Shown: piece by piece, positions 2,517 through 39,602 of the stretch
How the letters are laid out: each line of letters begins with the position of its first letter
How positions within the stretch are numbered: the stretch's first letter is position 1
Source of the DNA: Escherichia phage HY01
DNA: 64,000 nt
Direction: 5' to 3' (one strand)
Sequence record: NC_027349.1
Program-made: the position numbers and the translations under genes
Notes under the pieces: generated by a model
Database searches by the model: none
What the model was told of the DNA's origin: nothing
Seen by the model: the letters and a program-made list of their open reading frames with translations, nothing else

Positions 2517-3003
2517 TATTTTTAATTTTACAAATTCGTTCAGCTTCTTCAACAGCGGCGATAATGCTTTTAGCTATAGGAGTACTAATACTAGTAGCTT
2601 TTACACTTAACACGATTTCTTTATCTTTACCAGGCCAACCCCACGATTTTTCACCGTGAGTGCCTTTAATTACAGCAGACACCTCAAGTGAGCATCCATT
2701 ATCATATGTTTTTACATTGACAACCCAAGGTTCACTTTTCTCAATCGGTTTATCCCAGTAAATATTAAGAATACGTGGGACATCAAATTTGGCAGGACAA
2801 ATCTTAACCGTAAGACCTTCGCTTTCTAGCCAATTAATAAGAGGGCGTTCATACAGGCGACGATGTGGGCTTGGGATTCGACAAGCCTTATGTCCGTTGC
2901 TTGCGGCTTCACTAAGCTGTTCTAATACCTGCTTTTGCATTATTGATAAGATACCATCAAAAGATTTTTCGGAAGTTTCATTCAGTTCGGTATAAAGAGA
3001 CAT
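2488..3003 (-). CDS. hypothetical protein (171 aa)
   Basis: ORF with ATG at 3001-3003 and GAGGAAA RBS. Confidence 0.6.
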   Translation of the reverse strand: MSLYTELNETSEKSFDGILSIMQKQVLEQLSEAASNGHKACRIPSPHRRLYERPLINWLESEGLTVKICPAKFDVPRILNIYWDKPIEKSEPWVVNVKTYDNGCSLEVSAVIKGTHGEKSWGWPGKDKEIVLSVKATSISTPIAKSIIAAVEEAERICKIKNSLHLLNSMI

Positions 3004-3028
3004 AACAGTTTCCTCAAATTATAGGCTC

Positions 3029-3058
3029 ATAATATCTCAATCATGAGCCTATGTAAAC
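3029..3058 (-). promoter_or_regulatory. early-type promoter (-35 GTTTAC, -10 TATTAT) overlapping a 10-bp inverted repeat (3021-3050)
   Basis: GTTTAC at plus 3053-3058, TATTAT at plus 3029-3034; inverted repeat ATAGGCTCAT...ATGAGCCTAT. Confidence 0.5.
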
Positions 3059-3322
3059 TTATTTCATATTATTAAAATATTCTTCTGCGATTTCGTCGTT
3101 ATCATGGTAAACTTTAGAAGACAGTTTAACATAACCTTCAGCAGTGAACATGTTAATCACAACCTTTACAGTATACCACTGACCGTCTTCATTACCCATT
3201 ACTGCGTAAGTTTCAAACATCGGATGGTCAGGACCGATAACTTTAATATCATTCACTGTACGACCGAAATCTTCTGAAACGCATTTCATAAAGAAGTTGA
3301 ACAGTTCGCCGTAATTATCCAT
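3059..3322 (-). CDS. hypothetical protein (about 87 aa from ATG at 3322; track start 3334 is TTG)
   Basis: ORF; GGAGAATGAA-ATG ribosome-binding cassette. Confidence 0.55.
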   Translation of the reverse strand: MDNYGELFNFFMKCVSEDFGRTVNDIKVIGPDHPMFETYAVMGNEDGQWYTVKVVINMFTAEGYVKLSSKVYHDNDEIAEEYFNNMK

Positions 3323-3365
3323 TTCATTCTCCAAGTTGTTTTCTGTATCAGTAGTTGATAGTTGT

Positions 3366-3395
3366 ATAGTACCATGGAAAAACGGGGATGTAAAC
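3366..3395 (-). promoter_or_regulatory. early-type promoter cassette (-35 GTTTAC, 18-nt spacer, -10 TACTAT), member of a repeated family
   Basis: minus strand TTTTTCACAAAACTGTTTACA...GGTACTATA; same architecture as 7177-7206, 7544-7572 and 63764-63793. Confidence 0.55.
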
Positions 3396-3532
3396 AGTTT
3401 TGTGAAAAATTTTTTAAAAAGTTTTAGGGAATTCTAGGGTGGGAAGGGGCAATTAAAGGATAGGATAATATATTATAAAGGGTAGAAACTAAATGGTGCC
3501 TAGAGAGGTCCAGAAAGGTCTAGATACCAAAA

Positions 3533-3556
3533 AGCCCCAACCTTTTGGTCGGGGCT
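3533..3556 (-). terminator. hairpin AGCCCCAACC-TTTT-GGTCGGGGCT downstream of the CTS gene
   Basis: 9/10-bp stem; near-identical copy at 4091-4114. Confidence 0.55.
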
Positions 3557-3562
3557 AAAATG

Positions 3563-4036
3563 TTATTTGATTTGTTTAGCAGACCAAATGCGGTCTTTAA
3601 TAATTTTTTGGATGTCTTCAACATACTCAAGAGAGTGAGCATGTGGATTATCTTTGAAACTATAAGCGCGGGCTAACTTTTGGCCTTCGGTTTTGATTAC
3701 TAAAAGCTCTTTAAGGATAGCTTCATATTTAGCGATAATTCCTTTAACGATATTTTTTTCTTGTGCAGCTTTAGGATCTGCTTTAGGAGCAGGTTTACCT
3801 GAAGCCTTTGCAAAAGCAGCGCCAGTAGCAACTAAACTTTTCCAGGCCATACTAACTGCATTTCCCGTAAATCCTTCTGCTTTCATGTCGCGAGCAAACT
3901 GGAATCGTGATTCGTCAGAAGCATCTTTATAGGAATATTTACCCGCTGCAATGGCTGCTTTTGCGACAGCTTGAATTTCGGTGCTAGATGCTTCATTTAA
4001 CACCGCTTCATTTAAAAATTGAGCATATGATTTCAT
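3563..4036 (-). CDS. internal-protein-like capsid-packaged protein with N-terminal CTS MKSYAQFLNE|A (157 aa)
   Basis: N-terminus matches the 10-residue T4 IPII/IPIII capsid targeting sequence pattern (MKTYQEFIAE) with an L-x-E gp21-type cleavage motif; Lys/Ala-rich body; ATG and AGGAAA RBS. Confidence 0.6.
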   Translation of the reverse strand: MKSYAQFLNEAVLNEASSTEIQAVAKAAIAAGKYSYKDASDESRFQFARDMKAEGFTGNAVSMAWKSLVATGAAFAKASGKPAPKADPKAAQEKNIVKGIIAKYEAILKELLVIKTEGQKLARAYSFKDNPHAHSLEYVEDIQKIIKDRIWSAKQIK

Positions 4037-4090
4037 CTTATTTCCTGTTTTAATTCGTGGATTTAATATACTACTATATTTATACTAAAA

Positions 4091-4114
4091 AGCCCCAACC
4101 TTTCGGTCGGGGCT
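4091..4114 (-). terminator. hairpin AGCCCCAACC-TTTC-GGTCGGGGCT ending the stable-RNA operon
   Basis: stem-loop nearly identical to 3533-3556, followed by T-run on the minus strand. Confidence 0.55.
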
Positions 4115-4164
4115 AAGCCTTGCGGCAACCTTGTCGGGGTTCCACCTGCTAAGGCAAGTGTTTG

Positions 4165-4257
4165 TACGAAACGCCGGGATTCGAACCCGGTTATTAAGCA
4201 GTTGACGCTACTCAATATTTTTAAAAGGCCATATCTCGACCATATCCGAACGTTCCG
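4165..4257 (-). ncRNA. tRNA-like small stable RNA (possible T4 rnaC/rnaD-type species)
   Basis: minus strand has acceptor-like pairing CGGAACG/CGTTTCG and canonical T-arm CCGGG-TTCGAAT-CCCGG, but no standard anticodon arm. Confidence 0.4.
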
Positions 4258-4420
4258 TCAAAAACGCTACTCGGCTTACGGCAAAGATATTTCCTCGAAT
4301 CGATAATTCGGTGCGCCGTTTCTGTTGTGATAGTAAAGAATCAGAACACAGTAAAACTGTGGGAGAAACTATACTCCAGGGAACATCAGTCCGACGACTT
4401 ACCGGTAGCGACCCGGTTTC

Positions 4421-4771
4421 TTAGTATTCTTTTAAAGCATCAACCTGTTCACGACGTTTACGCCATAAATCAATTACTTCATACGCAGATTCAGCATTTC
4501 GAATTGGACGGCATTTATATAAAGACTTATGATTTTGATATTGTGTAGATAACGGAATTTTATCTAAAAGGTCTTTACGTTCAAAATATTCGTAACCATC
4601 TAAACCAAATGAACGATTTTTGAGAAATTGCCAATGACCATATTCGTTTTCGACATAAACATAATCTGCATGCTGATAAAGTAAATTAATTACACGTTCA
4701 GAAATAACAGTGTCATTATGATTAAAATAGAATGTTAAATCATGAACTACTAAATAAACATTACCTTTCAT
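4421..4771 (-). CDS. hypothetical protein (116 aa) inside the stable-RNA operon
   Basis: ORF with ATG at 4769-4771 and GTGAGGAAA RBS, starting 17 nt after tRNA-Arg. Confidence 0.5.
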   Translation of the reverse strand: MKGNVYLVVHDLTFYFNHNDTVISERVINLLYQHADYVYVENEYGHWQFLKNRSFGLDGYEYFERKDLLDKIPLSTQYQNHKSLYKCRPIRNAESAYEVIDLWRKRREQVDALKEY

Positions 4772-4787: not shown

Positions 4788-4863
4788 TGGTCGAGGCAGT
4801 AGGGATCGAACCTACGACCTAGGACTTAGAAGGTCCTTGCTCTTCCTTCTGAGCTATGCCTCG
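4788..4863 (-). tRNA. tRNA-Arg (anticodon UCU)
   Basis: cloverleaf by hand folding; anticodon loop CUUCUAA; T-arm GUAGG-UUCGAUC-CCUAC; CCA encoded. Confidence 0.85.
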
Positions 4864-4867
4864 GATT

Positions 4868-4942
4868 TGGCGGACGTGATAGGATTCGAACCTATAACCA
4901 ATCGCTTAACAGGCGATCGCTCTGCCATTGAGCTACACATCC
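4868..4942 (-). tRNA. tRNA-Asn (anticodon GUU)
   Basis: hand folding: acceptor GGAUGUG/CACGUCC, anticodon stem AUCGC/GCGAU, loop CUGUUAA. Confidence 0.75.
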
Positions 4943-4946
4943 AAAT

Positions 4947-5034
4947 TGGTGGGGAGTGATGGAGTCGAACCACCCGAGTCGCAATGACAATGGATTTACA
5001 GTCCACACCGCTACCTCTACGGAATAACTCCCCA
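4947..5034 (-). tRNA. tRNA-Tyr (anticodon GUA), type II with long variable arm
   Basis: anticodon loop GACUGUAAAUC matches the bacterial tRNA-Tyr loop; long variable arm; acceptor GGGGAGU. Confidence 0.8.
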
Positions 5035-5042
5035 AATTAATT

Positions 5043-5117
5043 TGGTGGCCCTGGGTGGAATTGAACCACCATCTGGCGATTATGAGTCGCTTGCTTGAAC
5101 CTTCCAGCTACAGGGCC
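5043..5117 (-). tRNA. tRNA with CAU anticodon (Ile lysidine-type by analogy to T4 tRNA-Ile, or Met)
   Basis: acceptor GGCCCUG/CAGGGCC; anticodon loop CUCAUAA. Confidence 0.75.
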
Positions 5118-5118
5118 T

Positions 5119-5194
5119 TGGTGCTGATTGACGGAATCGAACCGCCGACCTTCTCATTACAAGTGAGTTGCTCTACCTACTGAGCTAAATCAGC
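5119..5194 (-). tRNA. tRNA-Thr (anticodon UGU)
   Basis: acceptor GCUGAUU/AAUCAGC; anticodon loop CUUGUAA. Confidence 0.8.
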
Positions 5195-5199
5195 AAAAC

Positions 5200-5289
5200 T
5201 GGCGGAGGCGATAGGATTCGAACCTATGAGTCGCCGGAGCGACTGCCGGTTTTCAAGACCGGTGCATTAAACCACTCTGCCACGCCTCC
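5200..5289 (-). tRNA. tRNA-Ser (anticodon UGA), type II
   Basis: acceptor GGAGGCG/CGCCUCC; anticodon stem CCGGU/ACCGG, loop CUUGAAA; long variable arm. Confidence 0.8.
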
Positions 5290-5295
5290 AAATAT

Positions 5296-5904
5296 TTATA
5301 TATTGTTAATTTGATTTAGAATTCTTTTTGCTTGAGTATGACTTACGCCAATATGCTTAGCATATTTAGATAATTCACCACGCTTAGAAAAATCATATAA
5401 TTTAGAAATTTCTATTCTTCTTTTTCTTTCATCCGCAGAAACTTTTGCTTCGTTTGCTTTTGCTATTTTACGTTTAGCTTCTTGAGAATGAGTTTTACCA
5501 GCAAAGCCATTCTTCATTAATCCATTTGAAGACCATCCTTTTAATTTTCCGTTAGAATGTGCCTTTTTAACACCCAATGAAATTAATTCGCGTTGCTGAT
5601 CTGTCATAGGATAATTATTTATATGGTCCCATCCACCTTCACCTCCAAGTTTTAAATTATACACATCTGGTCTATTTAAAAACTCTTCTGTGACAATATT
5701 TTTCTCGGCTTCAAGCATAGATTCTTTATCATCAAAATACTCTAATATTTCTTTAGAAAAATTTTCTATACCATATTTATCTTGGGCTCTTTTTAATAAT
5801 TTACCAGAACCCATATATCCATCATCTAAATTTTCGGTAGAATGCACACCAATATAAATTTTATTATTAATTTTATTTGTTATTTTATAAAGATAAAAAT
5901 GCAT
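5296..5904 (-). CDS. segB: GIY-YIG homing endonuclease (Seg-type, segB-like position inside the tRNA cluster); 202 aa from ATG at 5904, track start 5946
   Basis: N-terminal FYLYKITNKINNKIYIGVHS (GIY...YIG), downstream conserved R, E and N positions; basic C-terminal DNA-binding region; GGGA RBS before 5904. Confidence 0.7.
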   Translation of the reverse strand: MHFYLYKITNKINNKIYIGVHSTENLDDGYMGSGKLLKRAQDKYGIENFSKEILEYFDDKESMLEAEKNIVTEEFLNRPDVYNLKLGGEGGWDHINNYPMTDQQRELISLGVKKAHSNGKLKGWSSNGLMKNGFAGKTHSQEAKRKIAKANEAKVSADERKRRIEISKLYDFSKRGELSKYAKHIGVSHTQAKRILNQINNI

Positions 5905-5950
5905 ATCAGTCCCTAATAAAGAACTGAGCGTCTCACGACGAGTCATAAAT

Positions 5951-6024
<74 letters not shown>

Positions 6025-6029
6025 AAATT

Positions 6030-6116
6030 TGGTGCGAGAAGTGGGACTCGAACCCACAAGGAAATCATTCCGCAGCATTTTAAGTGCTGTGCCTTTACCA
6101 ATTTGACCATTCTCGC
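6030..6116 (-). tRNA. tRNA-Leu (anticodon UAA), type II
   Basis: acceptor GCGAGAA/UUCUCGC; anticodon stem CAGCA/UGCUG, loop CUUAAAA; long variable arm. Confidence 0.8.
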
Positions 6117-6117
6117 G

Positions 6118-6190
6118 CTGGGAATAAAGGACTTGAACCTTTGCATCCTGGAATCAAAATCCAGTGCCTTACCAACTTGGCTAATTCCCA
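6118..6190 (-). tRNA. tRNA-Gln (anticodon UUG), CCA not encoded, 1 nt from tRNA-Leu (dimeric precursor arrangement)
   Basis: acceptor UGGGAAU/AUUCCCA; anticodon stem CUGGA/UCCAG, loop UUUUGAU. Confidence 0.8.
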
Positions 6191-6287
6191 ATTATTAACA
6201 AAGGCTCTCAAACAAGAACCCTTGATGATAGAGGGTATTAATCAGTGCGGTATGAGTTAATAATAACAAATAATTCTTAAAGCATAT

Positions 6288-6575
6288 TTACCATTTATGA
6301 TAATACATATTTACGATGCAGTCAAGACCTAAAGGATTCTTGAAAATATCATATTCAAGAGGACCTTTTTCCGTTTCAATAAAGAAATCAAAGTTAACTG
6401 TGTTAAATTTACGGTCTTCCTTCACTAATTTAACTTGAGAAGATGAACGGTCAATGTAAACCTTTTCAACTTCAAAATATGTTAAAATGCCGTAATCATC
6501 AATCAAGGCTTTAGCTGCTTCTTGATCATATTTATATCCATTTTCAATGGATGATACTTTCGCATAAAGAATCAT
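6288..6575 (-). CDS. hypothetical protein (95 aa)
   Basis: ORF with ATG at 6573-6575; no recognisable domain. Confidence 0.5.
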   Translation of the reverse strand: MILYAKVSSIENGYKYDQEAAKALIDDYGILTYFEVEKVYIDRSSSQVKLVKEDRKFNTVNFDFFIETEKGPLEYDIFKNPLGLDCIVNMYYHKW

Positions 6576-6577
6576 TA

Positions 6578-6961
6578 TCAGCCTTCATCAACAATAGTAT
6601 GAGTATGGGCATTTACAATTTGCCACCAGTCAAAACGATTAGAACCATACATCGGTTTATTTTCATTTTCTTTAATAATATCACGAAGTTCATCTTCGGT
6701 AGCGGCTTTCGCGATTAAATCAGCATATCCACCACGAGGATAATAATTATCACCTGCAAAAAGTAAAAAGTTTGGTTTAATATTATTGAACTCTTCAAGA
6801 GTAATAACTGTTCCTGATGGGAGTTGAACAATCTCTACATATTTATATCCCAATTTTTGAGCAGCATCTACTGCTTCAAGCAAAGTATCATGAGCCCGTC
6901 CTATTTGACAATTCGGCTTTTTAGATGGATTAGCCTGATAATCCGCATACACTTTATACAT
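6578..6961 (-). CDS. hypothetical protein (127 aa from ATG at 6961; longer track ORF starts at 7000)
   Basis: ORF tightly packed with neighbours; start ambiguous. Confidence 0.5.
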   Translation of the reverse strand: MYKVYADYQANPSKKPNCQIGRAHDTLLEAVDAAQKLGYKYVEIVQLPSGTVITLEEFNNIKPNFLLFAGDNYYPRGGYADLIAKAATEDELRDIIKENENKPMYGSNRFDWWQIVNAHTHTIVDEG

Positions 6962-6962
6962 T

Positions 6963-7148
6963 CTATTCACCTTTAGAAATTTTATCCATAACGATAGCAA
7001 TTAAACCAATTAAAAATGCTACTACAAGTGAAAACACATTTTCTGCTGTAGTTAATAATCCGCATATAAATCCAGCAAACATTGAAAAACTAAAAGCGGA
7101 AGCAGAAATTGCAATAGCAACATTTCGAATTAATTCACAACGTTTCAT
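6963..7148 (-). CDS. small membrane protein (61 aa; 2 predicted TM helices)
   Basis: internal ATG at 7146-7148 preceded by GGAGAATAAA RBS and an early promoter cassette; hydrophobic AIAISASAFSFSMFAGFICGLL and VFSLVVAFLIGLIAIV. Confidence 0.55.
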   Translation of the reverse strand: MKRCELIRNVAIAISASAFSFSMFAGFICGLLTTAENVFSLVVAFLIGLIAIVMDKISKGE

Positions 7149-7174
7149 TTTATTCTCCTCGGTAGTTGATAGGG

Positions 7175-7223
7175 TAATAGTATCACTACTAAAACCCTGT
7201 GTAAACAACTTTGTGAAATATTT
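7175..7223 (-). repeat. direct repeat copy 1 of promoter cassette (TAATAGTATCACTAC-N10-GTAAACAACTTTGTGAAAT on the plus strand)
   Basis: blocks of 15/16 and 19/19 identity with the copy at 7540-7590, same spacing. Confidence 0.7.
7177..7206 (-). promoter_or_regulatory. early-type promoter cassette (-35 GTTTAC, -10 TACTAT)
   Basis: minus strand ATTTCACAAAGTTGTTTACA...GTAGTGATACTATTA; near-identical to the copy at 7544-7572. Confidence 0.55.
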
Positions 7224-7224
7224 A

Positions 7225-7512
7225 TTACAAAAGATTTTTAGCAATAATCTTGAGATGTGCCGCAGAAATGTGTTTAGCTTTAAACAACGCAGTTTCTTCA
7301 GCAGGAGAGATAATGATTGTAGCACCATCCTTTTTAGCAGACCACCCATCACCTAGGTAAACAGTACCTTTGATTTCTTCGCCATCAACCAAGCTAATCA
7401 TTGGTTTACCTTCTCGTCCTTTATTTGCTTTAATAACTTCAGAAGTAAGAGTAGCTTCGGTAATGGTAGAAACCGGGGTAGTTGTAGAAGTAAACTCTTT
7501 GAAAGTTTTCAT
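7225..7512 (-). CDS. ipI: internal protein I precursor (95 aa; CTS MKTFKEFTSTTTPVSTITE|A, predicted 76-aa mature protein)
   Basis: 95-aa precursor and 19-residue leader ending I-T-E fit T4 IPI/IPI* (76 aa) as recalled; position next to 57B; GGAAAATAAA RBS. Confidence 0.75.
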   Translation of the reverse strand: MKTFKEFTSTTTPVSTITEATLTSEVIKANKGREGKPMISLVDGEEIKGTVYLGDGWSAKKDGATIIISPAEETALFKAKHISAAHLKIIAKNLL

Positions 7513-20236: not shown

Positions 20237-20244
20237 TTTTTCTT

Positions 20245-20252
20245 TATAAATA
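20245..20252 (+). promoter_or_regulatory. late promoter TATAAATA for gene 9
   Basis: exact match upstream of the ATG at 20277. Confidence 0.6.
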
Positions 20253-39578: not shown

Positions 39579-39594
39579 TTAGTTGTTTTTATGG

Positions 39595-39602
39595 TATAAA
39601 TA
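39595..39602 (+). promoter_or_regulatory. late promoter TATAAATA for gene 24
   Basis: exact match upstream of the ATG at 39630. Confidence 0.6.

Follow-up and report, generated by a model that had tools for sequence, protein, structure and literature searches.

A candidate internal head protein gene between twin terminators at the variable e.8/rnaC locus of Escherichia phage HY01 and its relatives

The DNA analyzed here is a stretch of 64,000 nucleotides of Escherichia phage HY01 (sequence record NC_027349.1), referred to below at its full length as the window. Between its homologs of the T4 genes e.8 and rnaC lies a gene of 157 codons, here called gene A, which an initial annotation made from the letters of the sequence had singled out as a possible internal head protein flanked by two hairpin repeats. 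The gene order around the locus is that of T4, with all genes on the minus strand; read from left to right on the plus strand, the e.2 to e.8 homologs are followed by the gene A cassette, rnaC, rnaD, the tRNA cluster, ipI, 57B, 57A, and gene 1. Over positions 3000-4700 the window shows 100% identity with the Tequatrovirus Escherichia phage PEC04 (KR233165.1), and this interval has matches in 770 phage records. The coordinates of the features are collected in Table 1.

The translated open reading frame (ORF) confirmed both the gene and the leader MKSYAQFLNE+A that had been read in it (the plus sign marks the proposed cut). The protein begins MKSYAQFLNEAVLNEASS, and it contains L8-N-E10 followed by A11 and L13-N-E15 followed by A16, both of the type cleaved by the gp21 prohead protease (L/I-x-E and a small residue). 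The corresponding leaders in T4 are MKTYQEFIAE+A in IPII and IPIII and MKTFKEFTSTTTPVSTITE+A in IPI. Mutagenesis of the IPIII leader in the Black laboratory, as summarized in a review, assigned targeting mainly to residues 4 and 7 and processing to residues 8 and 10 (PMC9026906), and the gene A leader keeps all four mapped positions, Y4, F7, L8, and E10, followed by Ala. The two consecutive L-N-E+A sites arise from an imperfect 15-nt tandem duplication, TTAAATGAAGCGGTG / TTAAATGAAGCATCT, in codons 8-17 (3986-4015, minus strand); the homologs in Mosigvirus and in Klebsiella phages have a single site, and the Mosigvirus homolog lacks the duplication. The initial annotation had predicted a processed product of 147 aa and had missed the second site five residues further on, because of which the final product may have 142 aa rather than 147. 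Judged from these sites, the candidate processed N-termini are AVLNEASSTEIQAVAK and ASSTEIQAVAK, and the mature protein would be small (15.4-16.0 kDa) and basic, with a pI of 9.5-9.6 compared with 9.0-9.65 for IPI, IPII, and IPIII of T4.

When all six frames of the window and of seven related loci were scanned with the regular expression M[KL].[YFK].[EQK]F, built on the leader, the matches were gene A and its orthologs, a second leader-bearing gene (gene B) that is described below, proteins already annotated as internal (T4 IPI, IPII, and IPIII, IPI homologs, and IpIII, IpIV, IpV, and IpVI of phage PST), and one unrelated ORF of 419 aa (MLDFIEF...), which the stricter form MK[ST][YF].[EQ]F would drop. 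In a profile search, the leader was retained in relatives of no more than 30% identity as MLKFNEFLAE+G, MINFSDFLNE+G, and MKSFSSFLNE+G (M..F.[ED]FL.E+[GA]), and two further distant relatives had looser versions of it. Because the leader persists in such distant homologs, a 5' module shared at the DNA level is not the explanation for it. The ratio of nonsynonymous to synonymous substitution rates (dN/dS) of gene A was 0.05-0.13, which indicates strong purifying selection and thus a real and constrained gene. An AlphaFold2 model (mean pLDDT of 75) predicted a disordered segment at residues 5-15, a three-helix domain at 18-75, a linker rich in Lys, Pro, and Ala, and a long helical hairpin at 88-155; the pLDDT below 50 of residues 5-15 is as expected of a propeptide.

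Gene A is bracketed by direct repeats of 35 nt, identical at 33 positions and spaced by 558 bp. Their coordinates in the initial annotation were right to within a few bases, and the length of 27 bp given there was an underestimate. A search of the 64 kb for AAAAGCCCCAACCTTTYGGTCGGGGCTAA gave exactly two matches (3530-3558 and 4088-4116), and 100 shuffled sequences gave none. On the minus strand only, each copy forms a stem of 10 bp, closed by 4 nt of loop and trailed by U5 (free energies of -20.4 and -20.7 kcal/mol; z-scores of -4.7 and -3.7), and these folds were better than those of all 200 shuffles. The plus strand has no T-run after either hairpin, and the hairpins are therefore one-directional terminators. 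The record of phage G4507 independently annotates terminators here in agreement with this minus-strand reading, and the terminator role assigned to the repeats from the outset is thus upheld. A search of Rfam gave nothing relevant at the hairpins, with only tRNAs scoring. The proximal copy corresponds to the sole copy present in T4, T2, and PST.

The upstream terminator is joined to a T4-type late promoter motif, TATAAATA. The junction TTTTTAGTATAAATA is identical in front of the homolog in Klebsiella phage KpV477 (Jiaodavirus), and the Mosigvirus homolog has AATAAATA at the position of the late promoter. About 135 nt past the downstream hairpin lies an early-type promoter motif, from which transcription of the e.8 homolog would restart, and an equivalent motif (GTTTAC...TACTATA) follows the cassette in Mosigvirus and Jiaodavirus. 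From this arrangement of motifs we infer late expression of gene A, which terminators would insulate from the early/middle region around it. Two further GC-rich hairpins with a T-run are followed within a few nucleotides by TATAAATA (20237-20252 and 39586-39602, both on the plus strand), so that the layout of a terminator joined to a late promoter recurs in the genome with unrelated hairpin sequences.

Table 1. Features of the e.8/rnaC locus and its surroundings in the window
Feature	Position	Strand	Remarks
Gene A, 157-aa precursor, candidate internal head protein	3563-4036	minus	phrog_2280; no Pfam match
Candidate capsid-targeting propeptide MKSYAQFLNE+AVLNE+A (cuts after E10, E15), codons 1-15	3992-4036	minus	two candidate gp21 prohead-protease sites, L-x-E then A
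Distal repeat copy, intrinsic terminator of gene A	3524-3558	minus	stem 3533-3556, loop AAAA, U5
Proximal repeat copy, closes the tRNA/rnaD/rnaC unit	4082-4116	minus	stem 4091-4114, GAAA tetraloop, U5
T4-type late promoter motif TATAAATA	4077-4084	minus	2 nt past the U-tract of the upstream terminator, 40 nt before ATG; motif match
Shine-Dalgarno AGGA	4043-4046	minus	6 nt before ATG; between late promoter motif and ATG
Early-type sigma-70-like promoter for the e.8 homolog, TTTACA-17-TACTAT, TG-extended	3366-3394	minus	consensus match only
e.8 homolog	3059-3334	minus	downstream of the cassette
rnaC (species 1 RNA) homolog, right flank of the cassette	4165-4303	minus	collinear with T4, nearly identical over the span
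rnaD homolog	about 4310-4425	minus	T4 gene order
ipI homolog	7225-7512		PF11634 match, 178.7 bits

Comparison with related phages revealed that this locus is occupied in different ways. In T4 and PST a single hairpin separates e.8 from rnaC, and the flanks run straight into the left and right junctions of the window; what these genomes lack is exactly a 558-bp unit consisting of the promoter, the gene, and one hairpin. T2 and T6 are empty too, as judged from the alignment span and a gap in the annotation. In Shigella phage Sfk20 and in SH-2, gene B, encoding 187 aa, lies between gene A and e.8 (1030-1750 of the extracted Sfk20 locus). It has the leader MKTYAEFLTE+AAKLPSE+A and its own terminator, AAAAAGCCCTATCATTTAGATAGGG, and it falls into the same PHROG family as gene A (phrog_2280, 2e-53), though BLAST finds similarity in the leader only. 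Phage HY03 carries B without A, and the upstream hairpin of B abuts rnaC there. There are thus four alleles, whose units all end in terminator hairpins. Sequence comparison verified the empty allele in T4 and PST, allele A in G4507 and the window, allele B in HY03, and allele A+B in Sfk20 and SH-2. Breakpoints at the repeats, which the initial annotation had named as the thing to look for, were therefore found among close relatives, with the T4 and PST junctions inside the hairpin, T2 and T6 empty, and the unit lost beside B in HY03. Gene A was found in 510 phage records and gene B in 165, with no copy of the latter in the window. When 60 evenly spaced records out of the 770 were classified by alignment-span arithmetic, 40 were of the Tequatrovirus type, with about 24 A, 7 A+B, 3 B, and 6 empty; these frequencies are a rough estimate from a redundant database.

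The hairpin itself was found at 516 places in 418 phage records, never more than twice per record among the matches listed, and once in T4, T2, and PST. Its confinement to the e.8/rnaC locus (2 copies in the 64 kb) led us to reject the idea that it is a dispersed repeat or a mobile element. Gene A likewise occupied one place per record, with no copy found at another locus, and 386 records span the gene and both flanks, which is close to the number of high-identity protein matches. The evidence is thus for loss or retention at one fixed locus: the proposal that the repeats mediate insertion or loss of the cassette was borne out for loss at the hairpins.

A published virion proteome bears on the location of the product. 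Yersinia phage fD1 (phiD1) has a 98%-identical copy of gene A, g140, whose product (157 aa, 17.3 kDa) is marked PPAP in Table S3 of that study, which denotes that LC-MS/MS detected it in ultracentrifuge-purified virions at a strict threshold (PMC8309999). The fD1 homologs of IPI (g146) and IpIV (g129) are likewise marked PPAP, and the adjacent e.8 homolog (g139) is not (PMC8309999). Detection in virions, as anticipated for this protein, is therefore supported for a homolog by a qualitative flag of limited specificity, the protein of the window phage being a 98% relative of the one detected.

On this evidence, we consider it likely that gene A encodes a late internal head protein, and that its cassette, absent from the classical T-even phages, is lost by recombination between the twin terminators. 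Transcription would start at TATAAATA, right next to the terminator that closes the tRNA/rnaC unit, and would end at the near-identical terminator past gene A. The leader of 10-15 residues would serve for capsid targeting by attaching the precursor to the scaffolding core, the gp21 protease would cut after E10 and/or E15 (L-N-E+A), and the basic, all-helical product of 142-147 aa would stay in the head with the DNA and be injected along with it. Because the two terminators are near-identical direct repeats with a spacing of 558 bp, they could recombine, or replication could slip from one to the other, and either event would delete promoter, gene, and one terminator precisely; the product of such a deletion would be the allele of T4, T2, T6, and PST, and the same loss beside cassette B would yield the B-only allele.

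The direction of change is suggested by more distant relatives. Homologs of gene A in Mosigvirus (APCEc01 and ST2) and Jiaodavirus (KpV477) lie between the rnaC-side terminator and the e.x early promoter, and because the gene occupies the same position in three genera, loss is favored over gain: gene A is probably an old gene that T4-type genomes have lost. The KpV477 homolog (2995-3530 of the extracted locus) is split by an in-frame TAA and annotated as two coding sequences, while related Klebsiella phages have an intact homolog of 177 aa; the TAA reflects either a pseudogene or a sequencing error. More distant members of the family occur in T4-like phages of Serratia, Cronobacter, Enterobacter, Erwinia, and Yersinia, at a record position of about 65 kb in those of Serratia and Cronobacter. 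The profile search found 13 relatives among 1.8 billion representative proteins, and those that were placed by tblastn were all in T4-like phages. In Mosigvirus, twin hairpins also flank gene A, with a stem specific to the lineage (the copies are 81% identical in APCEc01 and 27/27 in ST2); the minus-strand stem bases shared by both copies are GCCCCGACC in Tequatrovirus and GCCCCTTCC in Mosigvirus. Such lineage-specific bases common to both copies suggest an ongoing exchange of sequence between the two hairpins.

Several observations weigh against this interpretation or narrow it. Late transcription, N-terminal processing, and injection are predictions, and the Mosigvirus leader ends in LTE followed by Q, an untypical residue after a cut. 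The fD1 proteome is permissive, flagging 113-137 of 277 gene products (about 40-49%), including DenV, lysozyme, and NudE (PMC8309999). The strong purifying selection, together with 95-99% identity across most Tequatroviruses, is unlike a fast-evolving effector in an arms race. In a fold search with the gene A model, no PDB entry matched at E below 1, and the BFVD matches were only fragments of the protein itself; a profile search against PDB sequences gave no match. The hairpin is found at one locus, where the cassette is lost or retained, without sign of moving. Since the two terminators are unrelated in Jiaodavirus, the twin hairpins are a derived condition, which may have come about by duplication, gene conversion, or integration of a circle. 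Finally, ordinary homologous recombination in the flanking sequence could also account for the spread of the alleles.

The last point can be extended to an alternative in which the twin hairpins are simply two good terminators, and presence or absence of gene A comes about by exchange of segments through the long flanks, possibly driven by SegB. T4-like phages recombine freely, the hairpin is not dispersed in the genome, and a SegB-like GIY-YIG gene lies 1.2 kb away inside the tRNA cluster, SegB being known to promote rearrangement of this region (PMC13096335). Phage ST2 moreover combines a Mosigvirus-type A, 74% identical to that of the window, with a Tequatrovirus-type B of 97% identity, which means that neighboring cassettes have been exchanged independently. 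However, such exchange spreads alleles and creates none: the founding breakpoints both lie inside the 35-nt repeat, the same 558-bp unit has gone in two different settings, once leaving an empty locus and once leaving B alone, and the lineage-specific stem bases shared by the two copies imply continued exchange between them. We therefore regard flank exchange as an unlikely origin of the alleles.

It is also doubtful that the filled state is the derived one. A circular module of promoter, gene, and terminator could have integrated in the manner of Campbell into the single rnaC terminator, duplicating the hairpin, as a late-promoter analogue of the mini-circle model proposed for promoter-early stem-loop (PeSL) elements. 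Integration of a one-hairpin circle into a one-hairpin genome would give exactly the twin direct repeats seen, RB49 and phi1 have been shown to produce PeSL mini-circles (PMC2839356), and gene B looks added on, with boundaries in the GGGCTTTTT tail of the terminators. The occurrence of A at the same locus in three genera, including Jiaodavirus without twin hairpins, points instead to antiquity and a later loss in T4-type phages, and neither A nor the hairpin was seen at any other locus.

Finally, that gene A is a late cytoplasmic protein, not specifically packaged, which owes its leader to a 5' module (late promoter, ribosome-binding site, and first codons) recombination-prone among T-even accessory genes, and which was carried over into the fD1 virions, is quite improbable: the fD1 list does count DenV, lysozyme e, and NudE among the particle-associated products, A has a mature part unrelated to those of IPII and IPIII, and a 42-nt stretch of ribosome-binding site and leader is 76% identical between A and B in Sfk20, but the leader is conserved as protein down to 30% identity and below with all four mapped positions kept in A, its motif, across the loci examined, matches internal proteins, A, B, and a single other ORF that the strict form excludes, and the basic pI and low-confidence N-terminal tail suit a processed internal protein.

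Searches for function gave no direct lead. Kinship with known internal proteins was rejected, since BLASTP against T4 IPIII, T4 IPII, and PST IpIV found nothing past the leader, and the length of 157 aa that PST IpIV shares with gene A is a coincidence. Pfam had no match to gene A at E values up to 0.1, including PF11634 (IPI_T4 nuclease inhibitor). With no match in the fold, Pfam, and PDB-sequence searches, no activity can be proposed. PHROG lists phrog_2280 as being of unknown function, no annotation of the family as an internal protein was found among the records examined, and a literature search for RB32ORF133c yielded no paper (Petrov 2010 contains no discussion of internal proteins).

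Judged by sequence, gene A fits the T4 internal-protein class on every criterion that could be applied. It resembles IPII and IPIII, together with the IpIV, IpV, IpVI, Ip5, and Ip6 variants of other T-even phages, in its 10-residue leader with Y4, F7, L/I8, and E10 followed by Ala, its small size and pI of about 9.5, its late promoter motif, and in being non-essential and variably present in a hyperplastic stretch of the same 10-kb segment. It differs from them in having no detectable similarity past the leader, in belonging to phrog_2280, in its second tandem cleavage site, in its rare co-occurrence with ipIII, and in its position at a third locus, e.8/rnaC, instead of ipI or ipII/ipIII. Repoila et al. 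reportedly described in 1994, for the ipI and ipII/ipIII loci, that T4 relatives differ in how many leader-bearing ORFs, and which ones, they carry at a fixed locus. That hyperplastic loci of T-even phages hold variable, leader-bearing internal proteins is established, with IpIV-IpVI in PST and Ip5/Ip6 in T6 as examples (PMC4122927).

The arrangement of terminator and promoter also recalls the PeSL elements, terminator-promoter motifs around single accessory ORFs that undergo insertion and deletion via mini-circles (PMC2839356) and that are described in RB49/phi1, PST, and nt-1 (Arbiol 2010; Comeau 2014). As in those systems, a terminator stem-loop joined to a promoter flanks single accessory ORFs, breakpoints of insertions or deletions between close relatives fall inside the motif, and the predicted by-product would be a mini-circle with one chimeric motif. 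Unlike in PeSL, the promoter joined to the stem-loop is the late TATAAATA and not an early one, and the hairpin is confined to this locus, at 1-2 places per genome, instead of being dispersed over the hyperplastic regions. Leader-bearing variable internal proteins and terminator-mediated shuffling have thus been described already, and it is the family and the locus that appear to be new.

Internal proteins enter the host with the DNA, before phage gene expression, and are therefore the only tools that a phage has against immediate host defenses. IPI* (PF11634), an injected inhibitor of the type IV restriction enzyme GmrSD, is the model for the action of such proteins, and the window also encodes an IPI homolog. 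To our knowledge, IPI is the only internal protein with a known target. Unlike IPI*, which is a small alpha/beta protein, gene A is predicted to be all-helical with two domains, and it has no Pfam match. IPIII is required on E. coli ECOR17, where it acts against an unidentified system (PMC9391042). Purely by analogy with IPI (GmrSD) and IPIII, the anti-defense role suggested for gene A in the initial annotation is a reasonable hypothesis and our leading guess; a second guess is that gene A replaces IPIII as a bulk basic protein of the core.

Gene A and ipIII are rarely found together. A chimeric query of gene A and T4 ipIII (1335-1916 of the extracted T4 locus; the two loci are 5 kb apart) matched 647 places in 604 records, so that at most 43 records have both. 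PEC04 (5752-7205 of the record) and fD1 lack ipII and ipIII and have an IpIV homolog beside denV instead, and T4 has ipII and ipIII and neither A nor IpIV. This negative association, drawn from raw counts that ignore phylogeny, might reflect functional substitution or mere linkage.

A broader reading, which we advance tentatively and think unlikely to hold in full, is that phrog_2280 (A, B, and distant relatives including those of Klebsiella phages) would be a widespread class of injected head proteins that replaces IPIII in most Tequatroviruses and disarms host defense, with the twin-terminator and late-promoter layout as the late counterpart of PeSL; the family would have been overlooked because T2, T4, and T6 all carry deletion alleles. 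If so, this layout would let phages drop or regain effectors in one recombination step. Gene A adds a further unannotated candidate to the internal proteins, one that T2, T4, and T6 lack and that is carried by about 500 sequenced T4-like phages, many of which are candidates for therapy. The locus is also a compact natural case of an accessory gene that, through the duplication of a 35-nt terminator, can be dispensed with in a single step.

The surroundings of the cassette vary as well. A 116-aa ORF (phrog_3355, function not assigned; 4421-4771, minus strand) lies between the rnaD homolog, whose central part is divergent from T4, and tRNA-Arg; T4, PST, and T6 have nothing at this position, which makes it another insertion or deletion in the same hyperplastic stretch. 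The SegB-like GIY-YIG endonuclease gene (5296-5946, minus strand) is located between tRNA-Ser and tRNA-Gly (tRNAs at 4788-6190), at a position in the cluster different from that of T4 segB; in the catalytic domain it shares 83% identity with T4 SegB over 117 aa, and its C-terminal half is unrelated. Compared with T4, the tRNA set of the window includes Asn, Tyr, and Met and lacks Ile and Pro. A 2026 paper reported that SegB-driven amplification of tRNA-Tyr in T6 allows escape from the Septu defense, which concerns the neighboring tRNA genes and not gene A (PMC13096335). In HY03, a gene on the opposite strand annotated as a packaged ADP-ribosyltransferase (Alt-like; 2119-2417 of the extracted locus) lies just past the 116-aa ORF, where the tRNA cluster would be expected, and may reflect a rearrangement or an assembly join. 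The taxonomy line of the ST2 record (OM982647.1), Guernseyvirinae; Kagunavirus, is probably wrong, given a genome of 171 kb and a T4-like gene content at the locus.

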